Shown: positions 27,660-64,000 of the stretch, one piece after another
Numbering within the stretch: the stretch's first letter is position 1
Layout of the letters: each line of letters begins with the position of its first letter
NCBI GenBank assembly: GCA_054600435.1
Contig: BAAIJX010000041.1
Location: forward strand, 124,001 to 188,000
From: Neophaeotheca triangularis
Lineage: Eukaryota
Reading direction: 5' to 3'
DNA: 64,000 nucleotides
Position numbers and translations under genes: made by a program
Notes under the pieces: model-generated
What the model saw: the letters and a program-made list of their open reading frames with translations, nothing else
Told to the model about the DNA's origin: nothing
Databases searched by the model: none

Positions 27660-28331
27660 GCTCGCACATTGAAGACAGACCATGGAACTTACTCTGATGG
27701 GAATATGGAGGGTCATGCTAGAGTACGCCCCTAGCAATACGGAGAACAATGGCACTTTGGGGTGCTGGCTGTGACTTCAGGGGTTCGGGGGTCAGAGTGT
27801 AGCTTTTAGAACGTTGGGTTCGCAGATCGAACGCAAGTTCTGGACCCACGCCATTTAAGAAGAATGCGTGCCTGTTATGTTCGTTCGATAGGTTCAATGA
27901 TTACCCAGTCTTATTTCGGTTCATTTGATTGGACCTTTTGTTAAAAATGCATCGCACGACCAAAGCCGGAATATCTTCCTCTTTCTTGGTCCCCTCGACA
28001 TATTGCCAGGATCTCTTGGAACAGGCCCGGGATATCGGCTCACTATAAGAGGGACGGTCATATCTGACCTGCTCGCCATGGCAAGACATCAACTTCAGCA
28101 GCTGCGGCGTAAGTAACGCGTGCACCAATCTGCCGTCTCAGGCGAATTTAGTGGCGCACTTCCCGATCTCGATGTCACGTCTCATGAGCGGCCAGGGGAA
28201 CTAAGACGACAAGATTGGGATTTCGAAACAGATCAGTCGACTCATGGTTCGACCAAGGCAGCTGTTACAAAACCACAGAAACACGCTCCATCACCACCAA
28301 GCGGTCGGACACACTCCCAAAGCCCCCGATC

Positions 28332-30231
28332 CTACTCCCCAGACATAGCCTTCTCCTTCTTATGCATCCGATTCAACCAATGATCCTTTGCATAAAACGT
28401 CCGCATGCGCTTTCCCCAGATCATAAAAGGAAAGACGGCCAGGTTGTTGATCAAAGTCACGGCGACGAAGATGCCGGAGATGATGACGACGTAGCCGGAT
28501 TCTTGCACCCATTGGAGGACCGATTGGCCGAAGCCGAAGCTGATGCTGGATTTGCCCACGCCTGAAAAGGGGCATTTAGTTTGGGTACAAGTGGGGAGGG
28601 TGAAACCGGGTGTTTTTTTGGGAGGGGGGGAACAAGGGAACGTACACATGGCGATGAGCATTTCGGACGTGTTGGATTGATAGCTGTCGACGGCGTAGGC
28701 GAGGGTGAAAGTGAAGTCTGCGAAGTTGGTGGGTCAGTTGTACTCCTTTTGCTGGATCTCGCCGACTTACAAAAGTAAGCTCCCCAAGACACCATGGCAA
28801 TACCAGCAAAGTATCCGACCCAGTGAAGCTGGTTCTGAGCCGTGACACCATACACGACGAGCCCGGCCGGGGCAATAACCATCGCTGGGAAAAGAACTCC
28901 CAACCTCATCTCCGCCTCACGAATGTGCCCGTTTTTCTTGGTCAAGCGAGCGGCCAAGCGGTCAGAGCTGGAAGTAAAAGGCACGGCGAGGGCGTAACCT
29001 ATCAGACTAGCGAGAGAGCCGAGACCGGAACTAGTTTGCGGCCATTCGTACGGAGGCGCGACGATGAGGATGGGGAAGGTGTAGTTGAAAACGAGCGCGC
29101 CGAGGCCAATGTAGATGCCGTAGCTGGCCATGACCCAAAAGATGGGCGCGACGAAGAAGTAGGACCAAAAGGTCCAAATGGGCTTCCAAAAGGACTCATG
29201 GTGATTGATGCCGCTCCAAGGTTTGAGCTGCTGCAGGTATGTGCGTCGCGGTGGGACGAGCGTTTCGACTTCGATGTGGTCCGAGGAGATGCCCTTCTCC
29301 TCGACTTCGTCTTGGCTGTAGACTTTGCCGTCACCGACGGGGGAGTCCCAGTCGGAGCTGCGTCCAGCGGTATTCTGGTCGTCGTGAGCAGGGGCTCGGT
29401 GGAGCTTGCGTCTGTACTGCGTCTCCTCGACGAAAAAGAATGTTAAGATAAGGATCAAGCCGGCGAAAGCCGCCTCCACCCAAAAGAAAAGCCTCCAACC
29501 GATGCCGCTTTCCACACTCGTCAGCATTTAATAAAAGTGGCTACATATTTGACATCAAACTCACCCTGCCAACATGTATCCAGCGTACAGCGGCCCTGTG
29601 GCGCCGAAACACAGCGCTACAGTGTAGAAACCAAGCATAGTCCCGCGTTCATGCAGGAAGAAAATATCATTGACCAAAGCAACTGGCAACGCCTCGCACA
29701 CACCAGACGTGAAGGTATGAATAACTCTACACAGCATCAAAGTGCCATAGGAGTTACTCACGGCGCAGCCAATCAAGCCAATGAAGTACAGCGCAACCGT
29801 TCCCAGCATGATGGGCCTCCGTCCAAACTTGATGTACAGCGGGATCAAGAGGATGGTGCCGCCGCCATAGCACAAGGTCGGGTATGAGACTAGGCCGGAA
29901 GCGGTGTTTGGGTCGATGCCAAATTCTTCCGCAAAGAGAGAGATGTAAACCGAGGGGCCCAAGCAAGCGGTATTGCTGAAGAAACAGTAGAGGATGATTA
30001 CGATGAGGATCATTATCTTCCTCCACCGAGGCCATTGTAGTGGATCGTTTGGATCGTTGGCAGGAGGAGGGTAGAGAGCTTGTCCTAATTTGGAGGTGTC
30101 GCCCTCGGCGACAGCGAGGTTGACAGTTCCTGGGATGCCCTCCTCACGCGCATGACTAGGCCGTCAATTAGTAGGCGAATAGAACGCAATTAGTCCTTTC
30201 TGGCTCACCTGTGTGCCAATTGGGGTGCCAT
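28332..30231 (-). CDS. MFS transporter, Hol1-like, multi-exon
   Basis: N-terminal PANDPNDPLQWPRWRK, KFGRRP, DIFFLHERG, REAEMRL. ATG at 30231 followed by a GTGAGC intron. Confidence 0.85.
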
Positions 30232-31678
30232 GTTTGATCAAGGCCGAAGAAAGGTGTTAAGAAAAAGAAGAAGACGAGAGGGACTCCCTCGAGGTTTAGT
30301 ACTCGCAGCACAAGAGTCGAACTGCCGAATCTGGGCACACATTGCTATCAAGAAAACCTGCCGCTCTCATTGAACACAACCCCGTACCCCGCGAGCCCAG
30401 CACCCTGGCAGCCACGACCGCCTAATAAAAGGTAAGACGTCCAGATCGCTAAATAACCGACGGAGATCAGCCTCTGCATGGGTTCGTCGATTGAATGACT
30501 TCCTGTGACCAGGATGTGTTTGTTCTGCGCTTTCGCAGTGTGACAGACATAATACTGAACAGCGAAGGGCGTCTACCTAACCTTATCTAACAAACGTGTG
30601 CTCGGTATCGAAGTACCTGGAAAAGGTAAAGGCGACGGTCGGGCACGGTCGGGGTCTCTTACCCCGGTCCTTTACCCCACAAAACACAAAAGCACGCACG
30701 CACGCTGGACCCACGTGCGCCCCGTGGAGTTTCGACGCCACGCCAATCTACTTACCGAGCCGTCAATCACCTTCCAGGTTCCCTTTAAAAACAATCAAAC
30801 CTAAGACGACAATCTCTCTGGGCCAGCGAACGCGTTTGTGTCGAACCGTCGCTAACGAATGTGCGTCGAGACACACGTATCAAGAATGGACTGGACTATA
30901 GCTGCAGATAACAATTCTTCCAGCTCTTTTCTTCTCCTTTCATAGGTAACCTTTAGATGTGATTTGAGCTCCAGACTCGGCGTAACCTGAAACTTCCAAA
31001 CTAACATGTACGCGCAGAGCCATTGGTATCAAGGGGAAATGCGGCAGATAGTCTTTGATGATTGCCGGGGGGTGTAGCGGCCAGTCTCCCTGCCTCGGAG
31101 ACGCGAATCAGCAGTGGTGCAGTCGCAGAGGCGATGTCACAAATGGTCCGGAGCAGCTTCTCGAGAGCTTTGGCCGGCACTTGATCAGCTGTGCACAGCC
31201 GAGATCCCAAGATCTTAGGCCTCGTCAATTTTTCCCTTGCCATCTGCGCACAAGATTGTACCTCCTACACGACAGCTCCAAACTCGCAAGCCAACGCATA
31301 GGCCATGCTCTTTGGTCTGCGAATTCTATATCCGAGCGCGTTGCCTTCTTTGTCAAGGCGAAGCGATTCTCGGCCGGACGATTCCAACTCAAGACCGCGC
31401 AGAACATGTTGCCCGTCCCTGAGCAGTCTAATCCCAGCTGCGAACACGATGTAGCGCGGAGCAGACGTTTCGATCCGTCGTAACCACCGTACCACGCTAT
31501 GCTAGTTATTTCCAAACGGGTTTCAATTCCAGCCCAGTGACCCTCGCTCATGATCTCGCAAGCCACCCTTCTCGTCCCTCAGTGGAGTCTAGTACCGGCC
31601 CTGGTACGCAAGTACGGCGCGACAGCAACCGTTGTCACCCATCACTAAGACCAATCGTACCACGCCACACCACACGCC

Positions 31679-33283
31679 TCACATCTCGCCCTCTCTCTCC
31701 GCCCCAGCATCCGCATCAGCAACAGCACAACTAACCCCCGCCCCTAACACACCACTTTCCCCCCTCACGACCCTAACCCACACGGCCCCCCTATCAGCCC
31801 CACTCCCCTCAGCCAAAAGATCCAACCATCCCTGCACCCTGCCCCTAAAAAGAGGGAACTTCTCCACAATACTGCCATTAGCAGCTACAACGACTCTAGC
31901 AGCCTTGTCAGAAGGTTCGAGGTTCTGGCTCTGGACGTGCAGCAGCCAGAGGGCGTGAAGGGCGGTTGCTACGAGAGCTGCCGCGCGGTTCGTGACGGAG
32001 AGGGAGGTCTCGCGGATGAAGTTTAGGTCGCTGGGGGTTAGGGGCTGGGTGGTTGGGTGGGTGGTTTGGAAAATTGTGGCGGCGTGGGGGAGGTTGGAGC
32101 AGGGGTCTGTTTCGAAGGCTGCGAGGATCGGGGCGGTGAGGGTATAGGGGTCGCGGAGGGAGGGGATGGGGAAGGGACGAGGTTCGCGGGTAGGGTGTGG
32201 TTGGGTTTGCGTTTTTTGATTTGAGAGGAAGGGGGTAGTTTCGTAGGCTTCTAGGAGGATTAGCCGGACGATTTCGCCGAGGTAGCGGCCGGCGGTTAGG
32301 TATTCGAGCGGTTGGAAGTCGGGGAGTGGGTGGGTTGCGTTGAGGTGTCTGTCCCAGCGGGTTCGGGGGAGGGTGTTTTTGCCGAACATTGACATTTCAG
32401 TATTGATGAGAGTATGTGGAGGGGGTTTTGAGCGCCAGGACGCTGGGCGCGAGGAGTGTTTGCTCGGGCCGAGGATGGAGGTTGGGAGGTAGATGGCGGC
32501 GTTGGTGCCAGTGCCGAGGATGAGGGAGATGCGGGTGGTTGGGTCGCGGTAGGCTTGTGAGAGGAGCGTGGCGGAGCTATCGTTGACAATGGCTTTCATT
32601 TCGACATTGAGGTCTTTGTGTGCACAGGAGCGCATAATGAGGGATGAAAGATCTTGGCCTTCGATGCCTTGCGTGGCATGGAAATCTTTGCCCATTGGTA
32701 GTATACGACCACTTCGTTGCGAGGTCTGTTCGATTGGGAAAGACCATGCGACTCCCATGTCTAGCTTGGCGTTATTCGTGCCTTCCATGCGGTTGTATTC
32801 GGACAACATGTCCTCTATCCGTTCAGCCATCCAGTCGAAAAACTTCTGTCCCTCTAGATCGCGGACCGCCTTATCAATCGGAAAAGACCGTATGCGTGTC
32901 GTTTGCAACGTATCCCCTTCCGTTCCCGGCCTCCTGCCAGTCAACCTAACCAAAGCGATCCGAAGCGTCGAGCCCCCCACATCCAGCGTGAGAAAGTCTC
33001 CCTCCTCTGTTCCCGTTGGAAGTGTATGGTGATACGATGGCAGCATTGATATCTCCGACGACTGCAGCCTTTCTCTATACTCTTCTCCCAGCGCGCCTGA
33101 CATGAGAAGTAGTTGCTTGACCTCAAGCGGCGCCTCGAGGAGGCTTCGCACCTCGCTCGTGAAGGCTTCCATGCTCTTTTCGCGAACGGGCTCGACTACA
33201 TGGCGAGGGCGTTTAGGCTTCGACGGGCATTTGTGGTCGTCGGAGTGGATAGTCTGGGTTATGGAGTACAGCATCGCTACCAT
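31679..33283 (-). CDS. hxk3: Hexokinase-family protein, GlcNAc kinase type (Hxk3/HxkC/C. albicans Hxk1-like)
   Basis: LDVGGSTLRI, AWSFPIEQT, MGKDF, IVND, LILGTGTNA, INTEMSMFG, FQPLEY. GlcNAc-kinase assignment rests on context near ngs1/ron1. Start codon uncertain. Confidence 0.82.
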   Translation of the reverse strand: MVAMLYSITQTIHSDDHKCPSKPKRPRHVVEPVREKSMEAFTSEVRSLLEAPLEVKQLLLMSGALGEEYRERLQSSEISMLPSYHHTLPTGTEEGDFLTLDVGGSTLRIALVRLTGRRPGTEGDTLQTTRIRSFPIDKAVRDLEGQKFFDWMAERIEDMLSEYNRMEGTNNAKLDMGVAWSFPIEQTSQRSGRILPMGKDFHATQGIEGQDLSSLIMRSCAHKDLNVEMKAIVNDSSATLLSQAYRDPTTRISLILGTGTNAAIYLPTSILGPSKHSSRPASWRSKPPPHTLINTEMSMFGKNTLPRTRWDRHLNATHPLPDFQPLEYLTAGRYLGEIVRLILLEAYETTPFLSNQKTQTQPHPTREPRPFPIPSLRDPYTLTAPILAAFETDPCSNLPHAATIFQTTHPTTQPLTPSDLNFIRETSLSVTNRAAALVATALHALWLLHVQSQNLEPSDKAARVVVAANGSIVEKFPLFRGRVQGWLDLLAEGSGADRGAVWVRVVRGESGVLGAGVSCAVADADAGAEREGEM

Positions 33284-35311
33284 GACCTGGCGGATTAATA
33301 GTCCCGTATGCGCTTCCAGACACTAACGAGGGACAAAAAGAGAAAGCAAGCGGCTGATGTCAAGTAGAGTGGTTGGCTTTGACAGCTGAGGTGGAGCTAG
33401 CGTGGGCGGGAGGCACAGTCAATGGCTTGGTGTTGGTGCGTGATATCGTTGAATCATGGGCCAAACCGGTGAAGTCGTGGATGTGCGGCCTGTAGCTCGC
33501 CGGAGATGCTGGCAGTTGAAGCGGAAAACAACGGCATGGATTCTCTGCTACTGCGCGGCGCGGCAGCGAGGGCGGGACTGAACCCGTTGTTTGGGATTGG
33601 TGATGGTGATGGTGTTGGAACCCGGAGGTGGTGGTGGTGGTAATGGTGGTGGTGGTGGTACTACGGCACGAGATGACGGTAATGTGCGAGGCTCCAAAAG
33701 ACGCGCTCTCTGCTATCGTGCTCCATGAGCGCTGGAGTGGGAGGTACAGGCGATAGTAGGCAAGTAACAGTAGCGGTAGCAGTATGCAACGGAGTATTTA
33801 GTGTGACGGTGACAGTGGGCCCCTCTACTGCGGTTGGAGTTGGGATGTACTCGTTGGACGGTCGGACTAACATCAATACGGGTACATGCGGAATATGCCG
33901 TGTACTTTGAAAATAGAGTTACGTGTCAGCTGAGTATATATCTTCTACTTTGCCTTCTTTGTAGATACCCAAGGTTTCGTCGCTAATAACGTTTTTCCTG
34001 CCCTACGCCTATACCTTCCGTCCTGGTAACATAAATCACAAAATAGCCCACTCACGTGCCCACGATCACTGAGATGCGGCGAAGGGCTTAGTTGATGCCT
34101 TAGGCACTCAATTTCGCCATATATACTCTCCACACCCGAGTAGGTACCTCCTACACGACAACACCCTGAACATGTCAAAACGGGTACGACGCCACATACA
34201 GCGGGACGCAATCAACGCTCTCGTCTTTCTGCGGGACCCGAGAGCAGCCTTCAGCTAATCCAGGCGAATGTGACGTTGCATCCTCCCTCGACGCCTCATC
34301 TGGAAGCTGAGGTGAGCATCCTCAACCACAACCTCATAAGACCATTACTGTGGCCGGCCGAGGATGCTTCAATCGCCGTCAGTCGGGCAACATGTGAGCT
34401 CCATGCCACCAACCTCAACACCCCGGCAACTCCGGGATCAAACATGTGGTGAGCGTTGCTTGCGCTTCTCCTCCAGAGCAATTTGCACCAGCCAGCATTC
34501 CGTCTAGTCTTTGTCGTTGCATGGTGTATCACCTCGTAGCATCACGCTTTTTCACGAGCAGTGCGCAGGATCCATCTCTCTCCAAAAGGAGTCTCTCTCT
34601 GAGAAGAGCAAGCAGAAACCATGTAGCAATCGACGGAAAACGTCTTAGAAGACTGGAATGTCGCGGTGTCCAGCAAATTACACCCCCACTCCGCCTTGCG
34701 CCAATTGTCGCGATTCTAGGTGTTCGCATGGTATGGGGAAGCAGTTTTGCCCAAACTTTCTTCAGCAGCAGACAACCCTGACTTCTCAAGTTCCTAAGGC
34801 GAAGTCCGAACGCATACGCAATTCATCCAGCTGAGTGGGAATTCCCCAACCTTTCAGTGTCGAATCAGCAGCCTAACTTGGGCGTTTAAAAGTCTCTAGG
34901 CGCTTGATATCACACGTCATGCACCTACAAGCCACCTGCATCTTTGCGGGGGACTTTACATCTCGCTCGCTGACTTTGCCAATCTATCCGGCTGGCAGCG
35001 TGGCACGAGAAGGCCCCTCGAGGTCTGCGAGAATTAATTAGTTCATCAGGTCAACAAGTCGGAGCGGCTCCCTTCATGTGGTTGCCTACTATATATCAGC
35101 GACCTCCTTGACGAATAATCAGCAAGTACAGATGACAAGTACTTATCAACCGGTGAGGCTGCGCCTTGGCCATGCAGCTATCAGCACAGCCTTGCACACC
35201 TACAAAGAGAGGTGCGAGCCACCATCTTCCCCGTTTTCACACCATCTCTTTGTGGCGAGCCACCTTCACAACATTGTGTCGGGCTTTTGAAGAGTTCATG
35301 ACACGGCGACC

Positions 35312-49127: not shown

Positions 49128-49279
49128 TGTTGTAATGAGCCGTACTGCGCAGCACGTGACGGATGCCTAAGGCAGAAGCTGCAGAAGCCGCAACCTGTCT
49201 TTACAGGCTTTGCTATAAAGTACCTAGTTTAGTCCTTAGTAATCAATTAATCGAGTTCGTACCGCTATATATCATAATA
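49128..49279 (+). repeat. 5' LTR (about 152 bp) of the copia element
   Basis: Starts TGTTG, ends ..ATA (RIP of ..ACA), immediately followed by PBS GGTTATAAGCCC (49280-49291; RIP of GGTTATGAGCCC). Confidence 0.75.
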
Positions 49280-51819
49280 GGTTATAAGCCCGGCATATTA
49301 ATCCGTATAAGCGAGTACGAAACTAGCTAATTACGATTCCTAGGATAACTATCTCTAGTTAAACAAAATAGATACGAATAATAAGGGAGCTAAGGATAAT
49401 AAGATCCTTAAGAAGAACATAACCTTTAGTATCTAGGAGGCTATCCTAAAGAGTAAGCTACTTAATAAGGACTATCTTAACTATATGTTTTATAACCTTA
49501 AATAGCTACTAAGGGTAGTCTAATTACTAATATCTATAATAGATACTATAGTTAAGTTCTATAAGAAAGATATACTTATATATAGTATTATTATAGAAAG
49601 GCTATTAGACGAATATAGGCCTAACTATAGTATATTATATAAGATAGCTTATAAGCTATTTAAGTATATTAAATCTATCTACTAGCCTAATATTATAATT
49701 ACCCTCTATAAGGCTATCTCTAACCTCTATAGTATTAAGCTATAGGGAATAAACATCCTAAAGTATTACTAGGAGTTTATAGTAACTTATTAGACCTTTA
49801 AGAGAGCTATAGACTAGTAGGTTACTCTAAGGAACTAGACTAATATAGGAAGCATTAGTCTCCTAGATAACTACATTAAGATTCTCTTTAAAGGGGGAAC
49901 TCTAAATATAGAGTAGCTTAGGACTTAGAGATATAATAACCTCCCTTAGAGCGGGAAATACTTAGAGGATATAATTACTAGCCTTAGGTCTAAGGCCCTA
50001 CCTCCTCTATCTTAGTAATAGAGAAGGATATAGGGGTTTATAGATATAGCAAAAGACAATATCTATACCTAATATAATTACTACTAATATACTAATACTA
50101 AATGCTTTAAGTAGTACCTAGAGTAAGTACCTAAATAGTATAAGAAAGGTAAGGATAGTAAGAAGGATAGGTAGGAGGGGAAGAAGAAGGATATAGGGAA
50201 GAATAAGAATACTAAGTCTACTAAGAAGAAGGGGAGAAAAGCTACTATAGCTATTAATAATAGTAATAATAGTAATACTAAGTTAATCTTATCCCTATCT
50301 TTAAGAGGTATAGTAAGTATTACTCTATCTCTCTCTATAGTATTATAAGCTATAGTACTAGAAATCACTATTATTTTAGACTCTAGATTATCCTTCTCTT
50401 TCTTTAATAAGCTTAAGTATTTTTAAGATATTAAGCCCCTTAAGAAGCTAATTACCTTTAGCTAAGCTATTAGATAGGTCTCTATTACCTACTTAGGGAT
50501 AGTTAAGCTTTCCCTTAAGTACTATAATAAGATCTTTAGTATTACCCTAAAGAATATCTTATACTCCCTAGGATCCTCTACTAACCTAATTTATATAGAT
50601 ATACTATACTAGAAGTATAGGATTGCTCTAGATAGATATACTAATAAGCTAAGGTCTAATAAAAGCACTATTAGGATAGTAAAGCAAGTTTATAAGGTAG
50701 ATATTATATAGGATATTAAAATCCTTCTACTACCTTAGTAATAAAGCTTATTATTAATAGTAGTAGCTATACTAAGATTACTAGTAGTACTAGTAGTATT
50801 AGGGCTAAGGGTAGATATAACTAGATAGTACTAAAGACTAGGCTATATTAATAGTAATATTCTTAATACTACTAAATAACATATAACTAGGCTTAAAGTA
50901 GTAGATACTATAGCCCTAAGCTACTATAAGGTCTATAAACTCTTAAAGTCTTAAAGGGTTATCTTAAGAACCCTAAGAGTAAGGGCTAGTTAAGCCCTAG
51001 ATAAGATATATGTTAATATAGTTAGCCCTATTACACTAACCTCTAACATTAGTCTAAGGTACATTATCTTCCTAATAGATTCTAAAACTAGGTTTAGGTA
51101 GCCTCTCTTTATAAGAAACAAAAGTAAGGCACTATTACTTATTAGGAATTTTATAGTAAGAACTATAAATGCCTATAACAAGGTACTAAAGATATAGTTC
51201 TCTAATAATAGTAGGGAGTTTATTAACTATAATTTAATTACTATAGTATAGTAGATAGGGATAAGATAGGACATCTTAAGCCTAAAGACTCCTAAATAGA
51301 ATAGTATTATAGATTTATCTAATAAAACTTTCTTAGCTAAAGCTAGGGTAATAATAATTAACTCTAGTATTCCTAGAGATCTCTAGCCCTTAGCTATAAA
51401 CTATATAACCTATATTACTAATATAGTCTATAACCTTAGGACTAAGAAGATCCCCCTATAATACCTTAAAGAGGATTTAGGGGTTTCTAAGGACTAGACT
51501 ATTAACCTCTCTAACCTTAGAAAATTTAGCTATAAAGTATTCCTATATAACTAAAATAGGATTACCTTAAAAAAGTTTACCCTAAGAGCTACTATCTACT
51601 AGTTTATAGGATTCTAAGATAACTCTACTACTAACTACCTCTTAATAATACTAACTAGATAGGGCCTATTTAGTATTATTTAGAGCCTATATATAACCTT
51701 TAATAAGGATACTTACTTTAAGCCTATTTAGGCTCCTATAGTTTAAGGAGAATAGTTAGCCCTTTATATCCTAAGGCTTTAGGAGAACTTTAATAGCCTA
51801 TAATAAGAGTAGTAATAAT

Positions 51820-52105
51820 AATAAGCCTCTCCTAAGGGAGAGTACTAATATTAATAAGCCTCTCTTAAGGGAGAGTACTAATACTAGTAAGTCTCCCCTA
51901 AAGAGTAGGGAGAGTACTAGTAAGTCTCCTCTAAAGAGTAGGGAGAGTATTAACCTTCTCCTAAGGGAGATTATTAATAAGCCTCTCCTAAGGGAGAGTA
52001 GTAATACTAAGCCTCTCCTATAGAATAGGGAGCGTAATAATAAGAAGCCTCTCTTATAGAATAGGGAGAGTACTAAGAAGTCTCCTCTATAGATTAGGGA
52101 GAGTA
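51820..52105 (+). repeat. Degenerate tandem repeat (core AAGCCTCTCCTAAGGGAGAGTACT) in the integrase-RT linker
   Basis: About 9 imperfect units of roughly 24-36 bp. Confidence 0.75.
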
Positions 52106-53711
52106 ATAGTAGCCCTTAGTTAACCTAATAGAGGAAGATTAAGAAGATACCTTAATAACATTATTCTTCCCTTAGCTAACTACTAGTAAGAGGAAGAGAT
52201 TACTATCCCCCTAGCCCTCAATATATAAGGGTAGGTAGACCTATAAAACCGTAGAATTATAAGTAGTTATATATAGGAGCTATAACCTAAGCTACTAATA
52301 ATCCTAAGGACTATTACGATATATTTAGTAGAAAGGATATAAGCTAGTAGAAGGCTATAATAATTAAGGAGATTAAAAGCCTTAAATCTACTAGTATAAT
52401 TACTTAGATTAAGTAATTAGAGCTACTACCTAGTAGAAGAGCACTTATAAGGAAGTAGGTATTTAAGCTAAAGCTTCTCTTAAATAGCTCTATTAATAAG
52501 TATAAGGCTAGATAGATAGTAAGGGGATTTTTATAAAAGTAAGGTACTAACTATATTAATACCTTTATACTAATACTAAGACTAGGAATAGGAAGAATCT
52601 TCCTAGCTATTATATTCTAGCTTAAATAGAGTAGAACCTAGATTAATATAGAGATAGTATTCTTAAATCCTAATCTAGATAGATAGATCTTTATCTAGAT
52701 ACTAGGAGGACTTAAACTTATTCTTAAGGATAAGAAAGGAAAGCTTATAAAGATTAATAAGGGCTTATATAGTCTTAAGTAGGTAGCTTACCTCTAGTTC
52801 TAAGATACTATATCTTATCTTAAGTTAATAGGACTAAAGTAGATAAAGTCTAATATATATCTTTTTACTAGTAATAATATACTAGTTTTAATATATATAG
52901 ATAACTTCTAGATCTTTAGCCCTAAACCTAAGAAGATTAAGTAGCTTATTATAGGGATAAAGAAGAAGTATAGTATTAAGGAGGTAGATACTAACCTTTT
53001 CTTAGGCCTATATATTAAGGAGAGTAGGAATACTATTAAGCTATCTTAGAAGTATTATACCCTTAATAAACTTAAAGGGTATAATCTAGACTAAATAAGG
53101 ATAATTAAGTACCTACTTAACCGCTTATATAAACCTTCTAAGAAGTAATATATTTAGTAGGTTTATTATATCTTTAATAAGATAATTAGGGAACTATAAT
53201 TCCTAGTAAACTAGATAAGGCTAGACATTTCTTATATAGTTAACTACTTAGTAAAGTTCCTTTAAAACCTATCTAAGGAGTATATTATAGCTATAACATA
53301 TATCTAGAGATATATTATAAGCACTATAGATAGAGGACTTATCTATAGGAGATAGGAAAGGATTTCTATTAAGGCCTATGTCTGCGAAACTATGGCGTCG
53401 TATATAGCGCTTAAAGCGACTATAAGCGCTATCTACGCGAATGCGCGTCTATAGCCATAAGCTACTACAATCACTAGTCGGGCGTTAAAGCGAGAAAGCG
53501 TCCTACAAGCGACAGCACATAATATAAGCGACAACATAGCGATAACATATAATATAAGCGACAACATCTACTTAAAGTGATAGGTAGAGCTATAAGCAAT
53601 CATAATACCTTCAAGTATGTAGTTATAGACATTCTATAACGCCTATACCACATGACCGTCATTCGACTACATAGCATCGGCTTTAACACATAGTCGTATA
53701 GTAGTAGGTAT

Positions 53712-53814
53712 CGAGTTAACTTCCTACTCGTGACCCGACTCGTAGTCCGACTCGTAACCCGACTTAACACCTAACTTAACGCCTGATTTAACACTCGATT
53801 CACGACTCGACTAA
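53712..53814 (+). repeat. 12-bp-period YGASTCR heptamer array 1 (9 units)
   Basis: Units at 53712, 53724, 53736, 53748, 53760, 53772, 53784, 53796, 53808 (e.g. CGACTCG, CGACTTA, TAACTTA). Confidence 0.85.
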
Positions 53815-53899
53815 CGTTCTCACTTATAGCTTAACTAGAAGTAGCTACATGCCTCTAGTCGAACTAGGTTTATAAGACGAGTTAGCTTAACGAAACTAA

Positions 53900-55968
53900 G
53901 TCGTATTATGAGTCATAATCATGTCGTACTTCATAACCTTAGACGATTTCGTAGTAATAAGCAAAAAAGCGTGTTAGGGACCTAGGATAGGCACGAGTAA
54001 TCGAAGAGTAGGGTAGTAATATAGCAGACTAATAATCGTCTAGCCTTCTAATAGATCCTCTTACTATACTATTACCCCTAACGGCCCGCCCTTCGTAGTA
54101 TGTACTGTACGGATTTTCTCCTAAGTATCGTCGTCAAATGCCTTACATTACCCTAGGTCCTTCCCCTTACTTTCTACGAACTAGTAATGCTATACCTAGG
54201 GAGACACCGCTAGCCTAATCCTAGCTACCATGTCACGTTCTACCTATAGCTAATCATAGGACTGCTTAAGACAATCCTTCTTCGATATCCGATACTGCTT
54301 TGTTACTACCGGAGTAGTAGCCCCTTAGGACAGTTCGGGATCTAGCATAATGTCTCGTTCCTCGTCTATATCACTAAGCCTAGAGCTTACGCGACTATCC
54401 GAGTCGCTATCTAATAGACACCGTTAGTATGCGTTTAAGTAGCGATCGACACATCTCTAATGTACCTCGCACATCCCTATTATTCGAAGCGTTATCGCTA
54501 ACTAGTATGATCTACTATTAGTATCTACTATAATGCGCGATATAGCTTGAAACGTACCTTGTCTATCTCCGTAATCGTAGCGACGATGTCTGTCTACAAA
54601 TAGGTCTCTTGTACTCGCGCTCGCCGACGCTATAGGCTCGATAGGCTTACTAGCCTAAGAACTGTAGCTAAAGCTCTAACTGTCTCCCCCTAGTAGTAGG
54701 GCCTCGATCGGATCGCTTATAACCGACATGTTAGTTAACCTTAGTAATAGCTACCCGCTAACATATGCCCCTACGGCATTATTCGCTCGAGAAACCCCTT
54801 CTAAGTCGACTTCCGAGTCGTCCTCTAATTCGAGGCTCTCTATTATATACGTATATAGGTAGAGATCGGTTCCTATAAGTAGGCCGCCATTAGTAGGGTC
54901 CTTTATGGTGAACACGCGCTATATAAGTATGTCTAATATCTTCTTCTTCCTTATCTCGTCTTACTCGTTCCACTATTGCCATTTTTGTTCGAAAGTAGCT
55001 ATAGCTCTATAGGTATTAATCTTCGAATACGTCGCTATCCCGTTAATAGCGTTCACGTAGTTAGTCCCTTTAGATATGCTCTCGATTACTATGTATAGCG
55101 TCGTGTAGGTACTTATTAACAGGTATGTAGTTACCTATTCGAACATACCCCTCGTATATAAGTACGAGCCTACTATGCCTTTGTTATAGAAACTCTCGTT
55201 AAGTGCGGTGATTATAAAGGGGGACAAATATCTTTTACGCTGTTACTAACGTTAGACATAGACAGGTATAGTTTTGGTAACACTTACCCTATCGCTGTCC
55301 TTATACTCGAACTTGTTGTTCTCTAGTAATGATAGCGCCTATTCCCGCTATACTACTATGTCTAACCCCTATGTACTTATCGCCGCGGTGATCTGTTTCT
55401 TAACCACTATGGTCACATTGTTCTTAAAAGAGCGTACACCTTCCCGGATCTGACCTTAACATTAGTCGTGTCTTTAGTAGTACTATATTCGTAAGGCGCT
55501 TACTAAATCGAATGCTTCGTCGTGTACTGTCTCCCTAACGCGCTTTCGCTTATTTGCTAGCAACGCATTACGGCATTTATCCTACTATAGGCTCGGAGCG
55601 CGCTCTATCTATTTATATGCCTCGATAACTAGGTTAAACACTATAAGGCTATCTAGCCCTAGGGCCGAGCTAGCCTATACTACTTACTTTAACAGCTTGT
55701 ATACCTTAATGTGGTTATCGTTAGGCTTCTACGCTCTACTCGTTTTCGTTACTCCTCTACTAGGAACTGACCGCGATAGTGTTATATATAACTATGAGCT
55801 ACGCGAGTCGCGTCGATCTAGACGGTGTAGTTATTGTCTGTCCTTAGGCTCGCTAGAACTCCCGCGCTGCCTCGGCGCGTCCTTCGGGGTAGCCTTTCGT
55901 AGGTATACCTAGCTAATATGCGGTTAGATATATACTATAATAGAGTTAGGCGACTTACGCGGTAGCAT
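53900..55968 (-). pseudogene. RIP-mutated intron-containing gene of unknown function (ORF-A); 3' boundary approximate
   Basis: ATG at 55968; frames broken mainly by TAA/TAG; GTAAGT...CTAAC...CAG intron near 55240-55287; reads LLENNKFEYKDSDR/RKRYLSPFIITALNESFY. Confidence 0.45.
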
Positions 55969-56391
55969 CTTTTGCCTAGTTCCCGTTACTCGGTTTCCTA
56001 TAGTATAGCGTAGTTATATGTCTTATTAGGGATAGATAGGGCATAGTTACTTATATTAATTAAGGCTTTTAATTTAGCGCTTAGTAACGAGTAGTGTAGT
56101 ACGACTAGAGGGGGATGTGTAAACGCTATCTTCAAGTTCCTCGAGAATATACGCATATAAGGGAAAAAGAAGATAAAGGGTATAGGGGAAAGGTATTACT
56201 CCGGGCTTCGTCGCGACGTGTTACTTATTGTCGGGATTTCGCGTTATGTCCTAGGTGCTACGGGGATTTGTCGTCTTAATTAGTTAAGACCTAAACCTTA
56301 AAGAATGACCTCTATAACTCTCCCCTAACCACCTTATATGTAGTGGTGTGCTTAGGCTCCTTTAAGCCCCTATTAATACCTATATACGGAT

Positions 56392-56489
56392 TAAGCTATA
56401 GATTAAGTTAGAGTTTAAGTCGTAGATTAAGTCGTAGATTGAGTCGTAGATTAAGTCGCAGCTTGCGAATTAAGTCGTAAACCGAGCTG
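56392..56489 (+). repeat. 12-bp-period heptamer array 2
   Basis: Units at 56392, 56404, 56416, 56428, 56440, 56452 (TAAGTCG/TGAGTCG), plus two offset units at 56471 and 56483. Confidence 0.85.
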
Positions 56490-56500
56490 TAAAACATATC

Positions 56501-57290
56501 ATGTTCGGTCTCTTAGAACGAAACCTCTACTATACGAGCCCCTCTACTAGGAAAGATACCTATTCCTATGCCGTTAGGATAGGTAGGCCTACCTACTACG
56601 CTAGTAGCTAGTAAACGTATAGGCTCTAACCTCTTAGGCCTTTATCTATTATTCGACCGCTAGACTAGCGCCTCGCTAGCTCCTCCTAATAGTAATAGGG
56701 CTATTAGCCTCGCTCGTAAGCGTCGCCTATCGTCTATATCCCTACTACCTAGTCCGACCCCCGTTAGGCCCCCTCGTAAAGGGCTATGTGCCTATCGCTA
56801 GAGCTAGGCACACCGCTACTAAGCGTAACCCCCCTAGCGTCTATTCTCGACCATAACTCTAAGTCCGCCTTTAAGTAGGCCTCGTTTAAGTGACACCCTT
56901 CGTCCTAACGACCTCGAAGACGCCCTAGTGGGTATAGTAATACTACTACCCGATAGTAGTTAAATGAGCAAATCTTAGTCTAAAGAGCTAGGGGTACTAA
57001 ACAGGAGAGACTTTAAACACGCATCCTCTTTTAACATAGACAAGGCGGTTAGAGCTAGCGACTATCTACACACTAAACTAGAGACAAGGATAGATGCCCG
57101 TCTACTTCGCTATAATCTAGACCTAGAGGTAGTGACCAAGAAAACACGTTGTCCTATTAATACGGTAGCTACTATTAGGTAGTTATATACATGTCACCTC
57201 TACTAAAGAACGATGAAGTGTATAGGCTGCCTATAGCCTAGTAGATAGGATATGATAGCTTTCTACTAGCGTTCGTTGTCAATTGTCGAG
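56501..57290 (+). pseudogene. Possible RIP-mutated gene relic (ORF-B), unknown product
   Basis: ATG right after heptamer array 2; coding-like stretches such as RPNDLEDALVG and FNIDKAVRASDYLHTKLETR with RIP-type stops. Confidence 0.3.
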
Positions 57291-57329
57291 GGTTATATAC
57301 CGCTTTTTGTATTAAGTTCTAGCTAACTT

Positions 57330-58102
57330 AATCTATCGGTAGTTACATTAAAACTATGTTCTGTCTCTAATATATTTAAGAATCGCTTAAAGTCTAGATC
57401 GTTAATGCTAAAGTGCGGCATTTGTCTTATAGACTAGCTCCTCGACAGCTCGTAAGGACAGCACACTAGTTTATACACCCCCCCCCTTAATGTTATAGCT
57501 ATTATACCCTACCTTAGACGCTCGCTATCACTTAGGTTACGGTAAGGTCTATAGGGATACTCTATCGTTACTACCTCTTTAGTCTTTCCCGCTTCTTTAC
57601 ATAGCACATTTGACTTAGTTGTCGACTCGGTTTTCGACTCGTGTATTGACTTAGGTACTAACTTAAGTCCCGATTTAGGTGTTATACGCTACCCGCCGTA
57701 CTGTCCTAGTGACTACCCTCTCTTCGCGGGCTTCTAGCGCTATCGAAAATTCGCATATATATAGTAAACTAGTGTCTTAAAGGCCCTTGATCCTATTAGT
57801 GTCCCTATACCTATAAGTACACTAGGATATTTGTTCGTGATACTAGGACTCTAAGATATTGCGGCGACTAGCTCGCTTTACATAGTGTCCTTCTCGGTTA
57901 TAGAGCGAAAGGTGTTACTAATCTATCCTACCTATGTCATTATCTACTCCACTATAGCATATAGCTTAGTATACGCGTCTTCGTCGATGTTAAGGTTACT
58001 CGTGATCATCTTAATAGACGTGTTCCTGCCTATTCTTAACGAACTCGTCCTCCTCTTCGCTAACGGCCTATTCGCCTAGTGCTTGCTACTAAGCCATAGC
58101 AT
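57330..58102 (-). pseudogene. RIP-mutated gene relic (ORF-C), unknown product
   Basis: One frame from ATG 58102 with only TAG/TAA stops for about 220 codons (NLNIDEDAYTKLYAIVE...); includes heptamer array 3 in frame. Confidence 0.4.
57611..57677 (+). repeat. 12-bp-period heptamer array 3 (inside ORF-C)
   Basis: Units at 57611, 57623, 57635, 57647, 57659, 57671. Confidence 0.85.
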
Positions 58103-58728
58103 GTTTTCGTGTCCTATTAATTATTCGACGCATTTTGTTATCGAGCCGGAAGTACGTAGAGGGGGCATAAAGGCTTACGCGTTTAACGTTCATAGTTGTT
58201 TACAAGTTATATGTTACTAGTAGGTATAGTATCTAGGTATGTAGGTGCTAAACGCTTATTTAGCCGGCTTCTAAATATAGGGGCACCTTACCTAGCTCTA
58301 CGGTCTTTATCTCCTACTACCTTAGACAATACCTAGTGTACTATTAGATGCGTAAACCCTACTGGTATACTTTACTCTACTGTAATCACTTTGTCTAGTC
58401 TATATAGAGTACTGATTACAGTATAAAGGGAACTTGATATAAAAGCTAGCCGTAAACGGTAGGGAGGAGAACATTATACATAAAGAGCTTTCACACTCCT
58501 AATTACTCGTGATAGCTGCATACAGACTCGTGAAAGAGACTAGTATTATCAAAAGGCTTTAGGGTCTGTCCCTTTAACGTACTACGGTAAAGAGTTAAGT
58601 ATTATTCCCTCGACCCGACTACGTCCCTTTTCACTCGAGTATTTACTACCCTATATGTATTGCTTATTAGCTATTACCTACGCTACGGCAACCTTCGAGG
58701 GAGAAAGCACTAAAGTTCTAGTAAAACA

Positions 58729-58795
58729 TCACTTAACATTCGACTCGACATTCGACTCGACATTCGACTCGACACCTAACTCGACTACTAACCTA
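58729..58795 (+). repeat. 12-bp-period heptamer array 4 (upstream of the SNF2 relic)
   Basis: CGACTCGACATT x2, CGACTCGACACC, TAACTCG...; units at 58729, 58741, 58753, 58765, 58777, 58789. Confidence 0.88.
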
Positions 58796-58899
58796 ACATT
58801 AGTCTACATTCTTTAACCGCACATCTATACCGTAATTGTCGACTACTCGCATTAGCGACCTATACCTACTCTTATCTATTACTACCCGACCCTATATTA

Positions 58900-61800
58900 G
58901 TCCCTATAGCTCGGCGGCTACATGTACCTTCGCTAGCGGAAAGCTTCTAGTCCCGCGACGACGCGATTTAGTGGCTTAAGGTACACGGCGACTCTAACGG
59001 ACCTAGTCTAAAGCATTTATTTAGCCTTTCGCTAACTAAGTTTACTACCTTATGCGATAAGGCCGTAGATACTCTTAAGAATGCGTTCTCCCCTTACTCT
59101 ATTACTAGTCGGCTTCCTTATCTTTACTAAAAGAATTACTATAAGCATATCGCGGCTAAGATTGCGCTTTTCAACTAGGATTAGTACTAGTAGCTTCGCC
59201 TAGTATAGGAGAAGAACAATTAACCTACCCCTACCTAGTTTAATGAAACCATGATGTGTAGGGGCTAGCTACAAACCGGTAGGGAGAACGATAAAGACTA
59301 TAACTTCTCTACTATCGGATAGGTACTCCTCTACTATACCGCCGCGAAGTATAAGAAGACTATTAAGGAAGAAGAGAGAGAAGACCGTTTAATTAGGATG
59401 TCATTATAGAGCTGTCGCTTAACTTCGAATAGCTCTCGTCGATTATCCGGTTCTTCTACGCATAAAGTTACGTTAACTCTTAGTACTACGTCGTTACTCG
59501 CACCTCTATATCTCATAACATCCCCCGGTGCCTACCCTACGACTCTCGATATTCCTTCGATTAGACCTAAGCCTAAGCTTTCTATAGTGTCGGTCTTTGT
59601 TACTCGAGTGTCCCTATATCCTCTCTCTAATAGCATCCGCCTTTAAACAGTAATTTTCGGTTATGCCTAGTACCTTAGTCCCGCTATGTCGTAGGGATTT
59701 ACGATAGACAGTTTCAAGGACTTTTGTAGTAGAAACTTTAAGGGTAAAGAGTTATATTAGCTTAAACTACCGGCATGTAAGCTATAGGTCCTCTAGGATA
59801 GGATAAGCATTAAGGCTACTATATAGGCCCTTTATAATTGCATTAACATAAGGCGGAATAGAGAAGGGCTAGATCTGTTCCTTATAGAGTATCCTAATTT
59901 GTTCGAACGACTACCTAGCTAGTATTAGGAACCTTCCCTCGCGATAGCCGAACAAGAGATAATCATACCTTAATCGGATTTGCTTAACTCTAAAATGTTA
60001 GACGCCCTAGATTATTCTAGAGTTATAGGCGACAATGAAGATGTCGGACAAGAACCTCCTCGTATACTACCGAGTATAAGACGCAAATCGCCTCCTAAGC
60101 CGCGTCGTAATAGTCCCGAGTTACCTAGCAAGTCGAAACGCGAGTGACCTACCGAGTCAATTCCTAAGTCAAGTCCTAAATCAAGTCCTAAGTTAAGTCC
60201 TAAGTTAACTCCTAGTAAGGCCCCTTTATCTAAGTATATACTAAAGGATGCTATAGCACTATCTTCGTAAGCCCCTACCGCTATACCCGCTTCTACTCCT
60301 ACGGTTATCGTAAACACCTTTCCGTTCATGATCGTCCATGATCTAACTACCGTGGCGCTCTAGCGAGGCGTTACTACTAATAAGCCTATAATTAACATTC
60401 TTACTTTTAGTAGAGGATCTACTATAGTGAAGAAGAGGGACAATAACGGCAATAAAATAGAGGAGCTCGTTCGCTATAGTAAGACGTATAACTAGGATTT
60501 GGTTAACTAGATAATGTTAAAGGCTAACGTAGGTAGTACCCCTATACCGGTTTCTAGCGATAGACCTCCTTCTATAGGCGATAATAAGGAGATTGATGCG
60601 ACTTTAGGAGACGAGAAAAACGCGGTCGAGAAGATACTAGGTTTAATAGCCTAAGACCCTATATTGTAGAACATAGTATATAAGTTCTTCGGTTTCGATC
60701 CTTAAGAGGCCGACTCGAGGAGTATAGTCTAGTACCCTAGGTAGAATAGGCAGAAGGCATTAAAGGCTTACTAATTCTACACTATTGCCTTTATCCTTAA
60801 GAGGCTCGCCCTAGGACATGACGTCGCCATCATTGCGTTAGGAATAGGTCTTAGAAAGACACCGATCGGCCTAGTAGTCCTAGACCTACTACGCTATATA
60901 CAATGTGTACCTAGGGCGAATAATCCCCCTAATTCGGGTATCATCCGCCCTTCTACTCTCTTAGCTAGATCGGTAACCGAGTCGGTTTTATCGCCTAGTA
61001 CCTCTTACCGTAAGAAGCTATAACAACTCGCTAGTATAGATTATGAACTAGACGTCCGCACTAGTGCTATGCTTATTATCTTCTATAAGGACCTTATCCT
61101 CGAGTGGGTTATAGGAAGACGTCTCTTCCTTACCGAGGATAAACCCTAGTTAATTATCGTATAGGGCCTACCTTTTATAGCTACGGAGAAGAAACCCGGC
61201 AGTCGCTTCTATAGCTATGTGCATTATAAAGGCGACATACGCATAACCTAAGCGTCTATTTAGCGAGAGCTAGTAAAGGTCTATAGCGTAGTAGACATTT
61301 AATAATGGTAAGATAACGACAGGCATGTTCTAGTAAAAATACTTCTCTAGCGCCTAGACATAACTAGAGGTCAGATATGTCTATAGTAATAACACTTCTT
61401 TATCATTACTATAAAGGAGTCGATTAACAAATGTATCTCTAGCTTCGATCACTCTACTAGACAAGATGTACTAGGTCATCTTAACGCGGAATAGGCATAT
61501 ATGATAATCGACGAGTTTCACGAGGTTAAGAAACATAAGTCTACACCCTAGCCTACTGTCGGTCGTCTCTATAGAAACCTAGCCATTATTGCTATAAGCT
61601 TAACGCCGTATTCGAAGACTAGGCATATCGGACCCCTAACTATAGTACTATATATAAGGTACTTCGATGTTACTAAGACTATCCTAGGGAAGAAGGGTAT
61701 ACTAAGTCGGACTATAAAGGCTAGGTTCTCTAACCTAAAGCACTATGAATTTACCTCTAAAAACCCAAATCTTAAGTTTAAGCCTACCGTTAGTAGGGTA

Positions 61801-62898
61801 AGGCAGAAGATAATTAAAGAAGACTATTACCTTGACATAGACAGCCTTTACGGGTTAGTTAATAGTTATATAGAGAAGCCTCTTAAAGAAGGTAGAGTAG
61901 GAAACGACAGTGAAATGCTACCGGATATTACCGATTACATTAAGGATTTTAGTAGATTCATTAACCTATAGTCTATCTAGTTTGATTCTAACTTCGAATA
62001 GAAGCAAGTAGCTAATAAGCCTAGTATGCCTATCGTCGATATGCCGGCCTATATAGCCTTCGACATTTAGTATTCTTTTAACAAGAATACTATCTCCGAG
62101 ATAGCGTTATACTAGAAGACAGCTATAGCTAAAGTAGGCGAGTTCTTACCGTCGGTACACGAGTTCCGGACCCTTATAGCCTTTCCGATACTCCTTAACC
62201 TATATAACGAGGACTCCGACCTTTCTAAAGAGCTCGGGTCCTTTACTATTAAAGCTATGAAAACGATATTTCGATAGCGAGAGGAGATGTATCTTTAGGC
62301 CTATATAGATAAGCTGTATAATACTAAAACGATGCTGTTAATCCGTTCGATTATATAAGCATTCCGTAAGTTACCTAATACATTAGGAAAGAAACGTAAA
62401 GTCGTCTTCGCGGCTCACAAACTATTTAACCTTGTAATCCTCTAGCTATATCTCGTCTACCTTAGTAGACTAGATAGTTATGATGCGCTTCAAGACGAGG
62501 ATAATATCGCCATAGTCGCATCGTGGGCATAGAGTCCGACCGCTAACTAAGAGAGGATAAAGGCGTTTACGACTATAATAAATAAGTCCGAGGGTTACGA
62601 AGACAAACCCTTTATCATAGTAGCATCTGTTACTTAGATCAAGTCTAGTATATCTCTTCTACCTACTAATGTCGTGGTGTAGCTCGATAGTAACTAGGAT
62701 CTAGTAACGGATTACTAGCTTACTAGCTATATATAGCGTAACGTATCGGTATAGGCAGCGAAGCATACGGAGAGCTTTAGGCTAGTGCCGTTCACTAAGG
62801 ATGTTAAGCTCGTATACTAGTAGTCTTTGTCCTATACGAGTCTCTAGACTATAAAAAGTCAGATTGACGAGGTAGAGGCTATAATAGGCATAGTTTAA
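58900..62898 (+). pseudogene. RIP-inactivated intronless SNF2-family (SF2) helicase/ATPase, about 1300 codons
   Basis: One frame contains Q-motif LKA(HQ) ~60760, Walker A G(M)GL(G)KT 60841, Ia MLII..DLILEW ~61070, II MIIDEFHEVK 61501, III IAISLTP ~61590, IV RKVVFA ~62395 and V/VI S(G)ISLLP(A)NVVV(Q)LD(G)N(W)D(P)..D.(Q) 62644-62740. Confidence 0.85.
60117..60207 (+). repeat. 12-bp-period heptamer array 5 (inside the SNF2 ORF; encodes ESxP repeats once de-RIPed)
   Basis: Units at 60117, 60129, 60141, 60153, 60165, 60177, 60189, 60201. Confidence 0.85.
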
Positions 62899-63041
62899 CA
62901 CGACGTTACTATAGGGACGGGATAGATGCGACTAGGGCATATAGCCTATACGTACATTTTAGGTATTTAGTAGTAGCATATATAAGGCGAACATTTTAGT
63001 TAGAGACACGTTGATTTGCTAGCCGTCTTATAAGTCGTGTT

Positions 63042-63172
63042 CGAGTCGACACCCGAGTTAACACCTAAGTTAATACCTAAGTCGAGACCCGAGTCGAGAC
63101 CTAAGTCATATTCATATTTCATCTTGAACCTATTACCTAACCGAGTCGACAACCGATTCGGAAATCGTTTCG
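63042..63172 (+). repeat. 12-bp-period heptamer array 6 (downstream of the SNF2 relic)
   Basis: Units at 63042, 63054, 63066, 63078, 63090, 63102, plus a short run at 63142, 63154, 63166. Confidence 0.85.
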
Positions 63173-63499
63173 AATACCTAGTGATAATAGAGTAAAGTAA
63201 ATACGTAGTATCCTTATACTAAAGGGTTAGTACCTATAGTGCTAGTGTAGTATGTAGAACAATCGTTTGATAATTAGAAATATGACCATGTACTAATAGT
63301 AGTTTAAATGCACGAGGGCTACAAACCTATAACGTACGCTGTTTTGCCGTTTTCGCCCTTATTTCTATGATATAGTATGTCGTAATAAAGACTATAGTCA
63401 ATCTTTACCTATTAGACTACTCTTACTACATACTACTCGATCAATACGACCTTGCTGTTAATTGATCCGTTTTACCTAAATCTTAAACTCTAACCCTAG

Positions 63500-64000
63500 C
63501 CGCGACTCGCTACCAAATCGCGAACTAAGCCGATTAGATTAAGCGTCTTTTTCGAGTTAAGACGAAAGTAATAACACCTCTCCTATAAGTTACACAAACT
63601 ATAAGTAATGTCTCGCTCCTAATATAGATAGATTAGTCTCGAGCCGAAGAAAATTAGACCCTTATCGTTAATACCCGGATAACGTCCTATCGACACCCCT
63701 ACACGCCCTTATACTCGCTAACCTTCGTTAGATAAGAGAAGGAGATAAGCAAGTACTAGACAGGAACAACGCCGTCTTTAACTAAATTCAAGAAGCGTAA
63801 AGATAGGGAGACTTCGCGGCTAGGGTAAGGCCTAGTAGTAGTCGAAGGGGTAGTAGTACTAGTAGTAGCGACTACTACCTTAAGGCGTTTAAGCTTAGTA
63901 GACTTAGCCTCTAACCCCTTTACGAGATTATCGCGTTCCTTAGCGGTAGCGCGGTAGGGGTCGGGCCTAGTAGTAGTTAAAGGGGTAATAGTGCTAGTAG
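63500..64000 (-). pseudogene. 3' part of another RIP-mutated ORF entering from beyond the window (ORF-E)
   Basis: The minus frame reads ..PDPYRATAKERDNLVKGLEAKSTKLKRLK..REVSLSLRFLNLVKDGVVPV, about 80 codons without a stop. Confidence 0.35.

Follow-up and report, generated by a model that had tools for sequence, protein, structure and literature searches.

Six phased arrays of a short palindrome in an unclassified multi-gene fungal element with its own SNF2-type ATPase gene

Introduction

In the VANDAL elements of Arabidopsis, VANC proteins are described as binding family-specific motifs, which have been built up by tandem-repeat formation in non-coding regions, and as lifting silencing (PMC5735166). 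According to the same source, the motifs (YAGTATTAY for VANC21 and AGTTGTCC/AC for VANC6) turn over between families, while the genes are conserved. Here we analyze a fungal element of comparable anatomy. It lies at the end of a 64,000-nucleotide stretch of Neophaeotheca triangularis DNA (assembly GCA_054600435.1, contig BAAIJX010000041.1, positions 124,001 to 188,000; this whole stretch is called the window, and positions are numbered within it). The element has been altered by repeat-induced point mutation (RIP), encodes an SNF2-type ATPase and carries six arrays of a palindromic heptamer, YGASTCR, with a strict period of 12 bp.

Besides VANDAL, several other systems invite comparison. PlavakaA elements (CMCT clade) are reported to possess the termini 5'-TGT..ACA-3' and a 2-bp target duplication (PMC12730594), and giant algal Plavaka elements to have tandem inverted-repeat arrays and, adjoining them, an accessory gene with a proposed role in binding these arrays (bioRxiv 10.1101/2025.02.11.637652). 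Among fungal repeats, the closest described case is X3X3R8 of Parastagonospora nodorum, a RIP-degraded multi-copy repeat with tandem Rad5/SNF2-like helicases and uncharacterised open reading frames (ORFs), for which the available text of the paper names no transposase (PMC3017866). In that text X3X3R8 is treated as an endogenous gene cluster, the string 'palindrom' does not occur, and arrays are not mentioned. Starships are large gene-carrying mobile DNAs of fungi as well, and the main text of the respective paper contains neither SNF2 nor helicase (PMC11162782). Helicase-bearing fungal transposons are listed in PMC10799480, whose available text describes none like this element. No description of the element or its arrays was found in the literature searched (subscription journals and Repbase lay outside the search).

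Results

The arrays are genuine and not a product of chance, and the multi-gene fungal element that carries them is unclassified. If an array is defined by YRASTYR, with one mismatch allowed, at a strict 12-bp period, six arrays are present in 53379-64000, and none in the host genes (1-49200) or in the Copia-type remnant (49200-53378). The initial annotation, which had noticed no array outside the element, was thus right for the window. All six starts listed there (53712, 56392, 57611, 58729, 60117 and 63042) were recovered as well. The arrays comprise 11, 6, 6, 6, 8 and 6 units, respectively (5, 5, 5, 4, 6 and 6 of them exact), so that the size range given there, 6-9 units, has to be widened for array 1. 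Markov simulations of the element (orders 1, 3 and 5; n = 450) produced no array. Exact heptamers separated by up to 60 bp form 24, 17, 14 and 7 pairs at 12, 24, 36 and 48 bp, and at most 3 pairs at any other distance. Furthermore, in a motif-blind autocorrelation with period 12, the six strongest places are the six arrays (0.69-0.90). Additional short phased pairs were found at 53897, 54802-54832, 56471 and 63142.

The units have a constant and a variable part. With transitions forgiven, heptamers of different arrays are 0.96 alike, a figure inflated by the picking of units on the heptamer, whereas their spacers are 0.55 alike (chance, 0.5). Within arrays, spacer likeness amounts to 0.71. This homogenization of spacers suggests that each array has grown by local duplication, and the conservation of the heptamer between arrays whose spacers are at chance level argues that some force holds the heptamer in common. 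The differing spacers had been taken as evidence against simple slippage. Slippage indeed fails to explain the common heptamer, but may still have grown each array. A looser dyad of 9 bp can also be recognized, with a pyrimidine before the heptamer in 34 of the 43 units and a purine after it in 34 of 43.

A neutral minisatellite, i.e., a 12-bp unit spread by local duplication and ectopic copying and tolerated without a binding role, would agree with the higher spacer likeness within arrays than between them, and with the complementarity of arrays 3 and 6 (80% across 56 nt). We nevertheless regard it as unlikely, as neutral copying would be expected to transfer the spacer along with the heptamer, while the spacers of different arrays are at chance. 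The distribution in viral DNA speaks against it, too: among 90 viral stretches that contain four exact units, 87 have a single array, three have two clusters, and none has more than two. None of these control stretches matched the element proteins. Simulated RIP on unrelated DNA yielded no array in 600 runs, a result of little weight, since the pattern is nearly RIP-insensitive.

The arrays flank or interrupt the element genes. Array 1 (53712-53838, 11 units) is non-coding and lies in the interval between the left end of the element and the 3' end of gene A, and a short run of 2-3 phased units (54802-54832) lies in the low-complexity part of this gene. Array 2 (56392-56458, six units) is non-coding and located in the interval between genes A and C, upstream of gene A. 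Array 3 (57611-57677, six units) is in frame in a linker of gene C, and array 4 (58729-58795, six units) is non-coding and lies where genes C and D-SNF2 diverge, ~110 bp before D. Array 5 (60117-60207, eight units) is in frame in the low-complexity linker that joins D to the ATPase core, and array 6 (63042-63160; six units to 63108, followed by the phased pair at 63142) is non-coding, just past the SNF2 gene. The homology-mapped ORFs therefore bear out the earlier statement that four arrays (1, 2, 4 and 6) lie outside ORFs and two (3 and 5) inside, both encoding Glu-Ser if RIP is allowed for.

The two in-frame arrays could imply that the repeats are selected as Glu-Ser-x-x peptide repeats or as single-strand hairpins, and one in-frame cluster of the related locus L091, described below, does fold better than its shuffles (z -2.45). 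Such selection appears very improbable to us. Four of the six arrays are non-coding, which largely refutes it, and the homologous proteins lack the repeat. The window arrays fold no better than shuffled sequences (z 0.06 to -1.72), although RIP may have eroded pairing, and no Rfam match was found.

A metagenome scan revealed related loci, with L091, L092 and L093 among the matches listed. L091, a distant relative, is intact and not mutated by RIP; its sequence is incomplete, and 38 of its ORFs were scanned. It contains the genes A, C, D and SNF2 in the order and orientation of the window element, followed by a second D-SNF2 gene. The tandem D-SNF2 pair is located at 8487-12512 and 14544-17240 of L091, and their D parts share 38% identity. 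L092, at 99.5% identity to L091, is not independent of it. L093 was dropped, since its match is weak (E 2e-5) and it has neither motif array and none of the other genes. In viral contigs no related locus was found for SNF2 or gene C, and in prokaryote genomes none for gene C.

No YGASTCR array is present in L091. This locus has a palindrome of its own, GTYG-N3-CRAC, with 20 exact sites versus 2.5 expected. Without its tandem repeats of 23-bp and 100-bp units and the part with a Harbinger-type gene (see below), L091 retains 10 sites versus 1.9 expected. These form 10 pairs at 12, 24 or 36 bp versus 0.03 expected, and 12 of the 13 short distances are multiples of 12. The window, in turn, contains no GTYG-N3-CRAC site. 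Each of the two motifs can be described as a dyad of 9 bp with three free bases, and they have a CGAC core in common. The L091 clusters are located past gene A, in its low-complexity part, upstream of it, upstream of each D (7895-8043 and 13912-14153), at the D-SNF2 junction and past SNF2. Each of the two D-SNF2 genes is preceded by a motif-bearing tandem repeat, with a 23-bp unit in one case and a 100-bp unit in the other. At the D-SNF2 junction (9586-9640), as seen by eye, a single motif copy directly follows a putative 5' splice donor located between D and the ATPase exon.

The occurrence of a palindrome with a 12-bp period in two families independently is a further argument against neutral tandem repeats. 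A neutral origin would still agree with the fact that the arrays keep out of folded cores, as tolerance alone predicts, and with the match in array position between the families, which is not significant.

TGASTCA is the site of Gcn4/AP-1 (CpcA), and the T-form of the heptamer is identical to it. The initial annotation had therefore considered that the arrays couple the element to the amino-acid-starvation response. Our results do not support this. None of the 43 array units is an intact TGASTCA, and among the 86 half-sites there are 35 CGA, 33 TAA, 9 TGA and 1 CAA. The four ORF cores contain 107 stops, all of them TAA or TAG and none TGA, and 13 CGA codons have survived in these cores; CpG was therefore left unmutated, and the CG forms of the heptamer are ancestral. 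A CGA half is found in 26 of 43 units, and no more than 12 of the 43 are compatible with a TGASTCA origin prior to RIP. L091 contains one TGASTCA in 17 kb and no TGASTCA array. Given that CGA half-sites are ancestral and that L091 relies on a different word, it is unlikely that the arrays exist as fixed sites for a host bZIP protein. More generally, recruitment of a host transcription factor (e.g., the bZIP factor Gcn4/CpcA), making the element responsive to amino-acid starvation or a different kind of stress, is quite unlikely in our view. It would fit the nine surviving TGA half-sites, the up to 12 units compatible with TGASTCA and the position of two arrays upstream of genes. However, other arrays lie downstream of genes or in ORFs, and there is no need for a host site to differ from family to family, unless a different host factor was used in each host. 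Some array units could have bound a host bZIP.

Gene C (57206-58130, minus strand) is the best candidate for a reader of the motif. Although broken by RIP, it can be read (as all element genes here, with X at stops) as a helical N-terminal domain, a linker and an alpha/beta C-terminal domain. It is 31% identical to the L091 protein P0038 over 283 aa (E 8e-34), and there are four more homologues, two of them named, from Meristemomyces frigidus. The linker of the window protein at array 3 is ~20 residues longer than those of the five homologues, which lack this stretch. No Pfam or PDB sequence match was found. In the gene C model, residues 41-130, corresponding to the N-terminal domain, have a predicted local distance difference test (pLDDT) score of 71-93, and the domain is basic at its end. 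Structural neighbours at Z 4-6 include the SLIDE domains of ISWI and Chd1, Myb/GARP and Sap1 domains (for ISWI, Z 5.9 and a root-mean-square deviation of 3.1 over 81 aligned residues; for ISW1a, Z 5.5), and the Atlas leads include Tri-helical/Clr5 clusters (0.75-0.77). Note that Z 5.9 is below the level that parts true from common helical matches, so the domain may be called SANT/SLIDE-like only as a model-based suggestion.

The largest gene, D-SNF2 (58906-62900, plus strand, ends approximate), is RIP-broken and combines an orphan N-terminal part, D, with a divergent SNF2-type ATPase. For the latter, phmmer found 30 relatives with E <=0.001 (best E 1e-65, 32% identical), the named ones being from Polychaeton citri and Meristemomyces frigidus. 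SNF2-rel_dom was matched by 11 of the 14 ATPase relatives scanned (seven above cut-off). Motifs I, II and III are visible in the window copy, and motif VI is present in six of seven relatives and absent from the RIP-damaged copy. The ATPase thus has the features of the SNF2 type of superfamily 2 (SF2). In a quick SNF2 tree with long branches, the window protein had no supported place, and a word-based homologue search with it gave no match. Part D aligns with the N-termini of P0019 and P0031. Structure searches with D gave no hit at Z >=5, no Foldseek match at E 0.001 and a blank in the Atlas, and genes C and D have no profile similarity to each other. By eye, the C-terminal domains of genes C and D (P0038, 180-285; P0039, 238-360) look like PB1/ubiquitin-type interaction folds in low-confidence models that no tool confirmed. 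P0015 and P0037 contain a four-residue repeat (DDKL/DDNQ) in an insert of the ATPase, which may derive from a 12-bp array lying in frame in the DNA of a third family.

Gene A (54040-55970, minus strand, ends approximate) is RIP-broken, too, and weakly DUF6532-like (Pfam E 0.012, under the Pfam cut-off). It matches its L091 homologue with a tblastn E of 2e-6, and the homologue itself matches DUF6532 with E 0.013. A word-based search among longer proteins with a piece of the L091 gene A gave no match. A possible, uncertain gene B (56500-57150, plus strand) is a proline-rich reading frame, open except for stops of the RIP type. An ORF occupies the corresponding position in L091, and BLASTP between the two was not significant (E 4.2). 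A reading of 56493-57521 as a RING-like gene fails in its second half, where the minus-strand gene C is the conserved one. A possible 3' part of a further gene (63400-63998, minus strand) has no Pfam match and no counterpart in L091; it is multi-copy from ~63707, where depth rises. Other copies of 63707-64000 have internal joints, and this segment may be either a nested repeat or a part common to other elements. A six-frame Pfam scan of the RIP-mutated region gave no family, and none of the ORFs scanned in the window and L091 matched DUF3716.

The element is inserted into a Copia-type retrotransposon remnant (49150-53378, start approximate, plus strand). This target, which is outside the element proper, is multi-copy and heavily RIP-mutated, has gag/pol-like frames by eye and is broken off at the start of its RNase H region. 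In run X1, another Copia copy goes on past 53378 with different letters, and depth is 6-13x that of the element. The loose end at 53378 sets the junction, and hence the left end of the element, TGT, at 53379-53381 (plus strand). The right end is beyond the window, so ~10.6 kb of the element are visible. Up to ~63700 the element is single-copy at 80% identity in run X1. Two other runs, X2 and X3, have no coverage of the element or of its flanking DNA and are uninformative. Its observed/expected ratios are 0.43 for CpA (depleted) and 1.30 for CpG (intact), as compared to 0.08 and 0.16, both lost, in Copia 49200-53378. Two mutation regimes thus adjoin, with CpA and CpG lost in Copia and CpA alone in the element (53379-63700); age, copy number or protection of the active element from CpG methylation could account for this contrast. 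The insertion into another element and RIP across 10 kb suggest that it is mobile DNA that was once repeated. The present copy is dead.

A subterminal cluster of AGCGA(C/T/G) direct repeats, partly 30-bp tandem, is located at 53415-53563 (plus strand), with six copies in 53379-53600 versus nine on the same strand in the remaining 10.4 kb of the element; Tandem Repeats Finder reported a repeat at 53508-53567. This bears on the idea that an element-encoded protein on the arrays would serve transposition or DNA handling, be it end synapsis, as with the subterminal repeats of CACTA elements, replication, or the segregation of a form that has been excised. Family-specific phasing would fit this role equally well, and so would the left end TGT, as reported for PlavakaA of the CACTA-related clade (PMC12730594), and the inverted-repeat arrays described beside a ParB-like gene in giant algal Plavaka (bioRxiv 10.1101/2025.02.11.637652). 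Still, it seems improbable, as the arrays are spread in the interior beside genes, whereas the subterminal place is held by the AGCGA cluster, and no transposase, recombinase or capsid gene was seen in the visible 10.6 kb (Pfam; RIP lowers sensitivity). In L091, the only transposase or recombinase found by Pfam among the 38 ORFs is an intact PIF/Harbinger-type gene beside the element genes (238-1581; DDE_Tnp_4, E 3e-25), probably a separate insertion, though it could be the mobilising enzyme of this copy. For the same reason synapsis, replication and packaging, which had been named initially as functions of a protein-binding platform, gained no direct support, while the platform itself is supported indirectly by the different phased palindrome of L091.

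The gene content and dinucleotide pattern of the window point to a filamentous ascomycete host with RIP. Besides the element, two features may be mentioned. The pol region of Copia contains a 33/36-bp tandem array (51806-52112), the length of which varies among copies. A GH3 hydrolase carrying a GNAT domain, an NDT80/PhoG-like factor and a hexokinase are encoded by host genes at 18149-33322, a set that resembles the fungal N-acetylglucosamine utilisation cluster.

Discussion

With about even confidence, we favour the explanation that the arrays are family-specific docking sites for an element-encoded DNA-binding protein, which would serve self-recognition and possibly recruit the SNF2 ATPase of the element against silencing. 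An element-encoded reader is the most economical assumption, since L091, with the same gene order, has phased arrays of a different palindrome. Each element family would own a short palindrome, multiplied by local tandem duplication into rows of 12-bp period, which would flank the element genes and occupy tolerant linkers. The binder, most likely the helical N-terminal domain of the gene C product in dimeric form, would occupy these rows cooperatively, one dimer per 12 bp; a dyad at a period of 12 bp, which is not a helical-turn multiple, would fit side-by-side dimers. The specificity of the binder would shift together with the motif. In this way the chromatin of the element might be kept open or transcribed in spite of host silencing, plausibly via its own SNF2 ATPase. 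With this ATPase encoded alongside the arrays, a role in chromatin is plausible; recruitment of the ATPase by gene C is a guess.

Several points weigh against this explanation. Only two families were compared, and GTYG-N3-CRAC was defined after some of the L091 sites had been seen, so the site statistics are not fully blind. Several L091 clusters consist merely of one or two units. Although five of the six window arrays lie within 400 bp of an L091 cluster, this is not significant (p 0.06 under a uniform null, 0.16-0.22 without folded cores), and array 3 has no L091 counterpart. As the element is single-copy at the identity given above, there are no copies in which conservation of heptamer and spacer could be compared. 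The fold matches of gene C are all below Z 8, the top one being an unrelated subunit of the anaphase-promoting complex (APC/C; Z 6.2); Foldseek gave no match at E 0.001, and the Atlas scores are below 0.9. Finally, Pfam revealed neither a VANC domain nor, apart from the Harbinger-type gene, a transposase in the read-through ORFs of the window and the 38 ORFs of L091.

Among the described systems, the element works like VANDAL/VANC by anatomy, without being a member of this group, as no VANC domain was found in the ORFs scanned. In both cases a short family-specific motif is present at several sites of a multi-gene element and differs between related families, which holds here for two families (YGASTCR in the window and GTYG-N3-CRAC in L091, neither having arrays of the other motif). 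The present element differs in being fungal, in its palindromic motif with a fixed 12-bp period, in its SNF2 ATPase and in having some arrays in coding linkers. Furthermore, DUF1985 and DUF287 are absent from the ORFs scanned in both loci, and no Mutator-type transposase (VANA) was detected in the visible 10.6 kb or in L091, both of which are incomplete. Demethylation and motif binding belong to the plant system, whereas the fungal one is known from its sequence. The L091 motif at 7964-8020 contains GTTGTCC, which is also found within the VANC6 target AGTTGTCC; this is probably a coincidence.

With giant Plavaka the element shares, as far as these are described in the sources cited above, its large size, accessory chromatin-related genes and arrays of inverted repeats beside a gene with a proposed binding role. 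Its left end at 53379 reads TGT, as reported for the termini of PlavakaA, with the right end and any target duplication lying beyond the window; note that several types of element start with TG(T). No Plavaka transposase (DDE with C(2)C, H(3-4)H), methylase, SET, 2OG-oxygenase or TET gene was seen, RIP lowering the sensitivity and both sequences being incomplete. The tandem SNF2 pair of L091 resembles X3X3R8, as judged from the published description of the latter. X3X3R8 also includes a gene for a ubiquitin-conjugating enzyme, to which no match was found here. Starships are similar as large gene-carrying DNA, but the visible part of our element has no DUF3435 captain (a tyrosine recombinase) or auxiliary domain of those listed in the Starship paper, and no captain is found near its visible end, the right end being beyond the window (PMC11162782). 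From the Gcn4/AP-1/CpcA site the heptamer differs in that most units carry CGA half-sites and L091 another palindrome. It is possible, though doubtful, that we are dealing with an undescribed group of large fungal elements equipped to counter chromatin silencing, in which a sequence-specific reader polymerises on family-specific 12-bp palindrome arrays and recruits a dedicated SNF2 remodeller, with reader and motif co-evolving, convergent with plant VANC but with a motor encoded by the element.

What appears to be new is a variant of family-specific self-recognition arrays, the function of which we infer from two families. A direct test is possible: L091 provides a candidate protein and a predicted site, and the window motif can serve as a specificity control. 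If our explanation is true, it would provide a function for unexplained SNF2-bearing fungal repeats and for orphan domains such as DUF6532, and a fungal element with private phased arrays and its own SNF2 ATPase would bring hosts relying on RIP and heterochromatin into the arms race as well.

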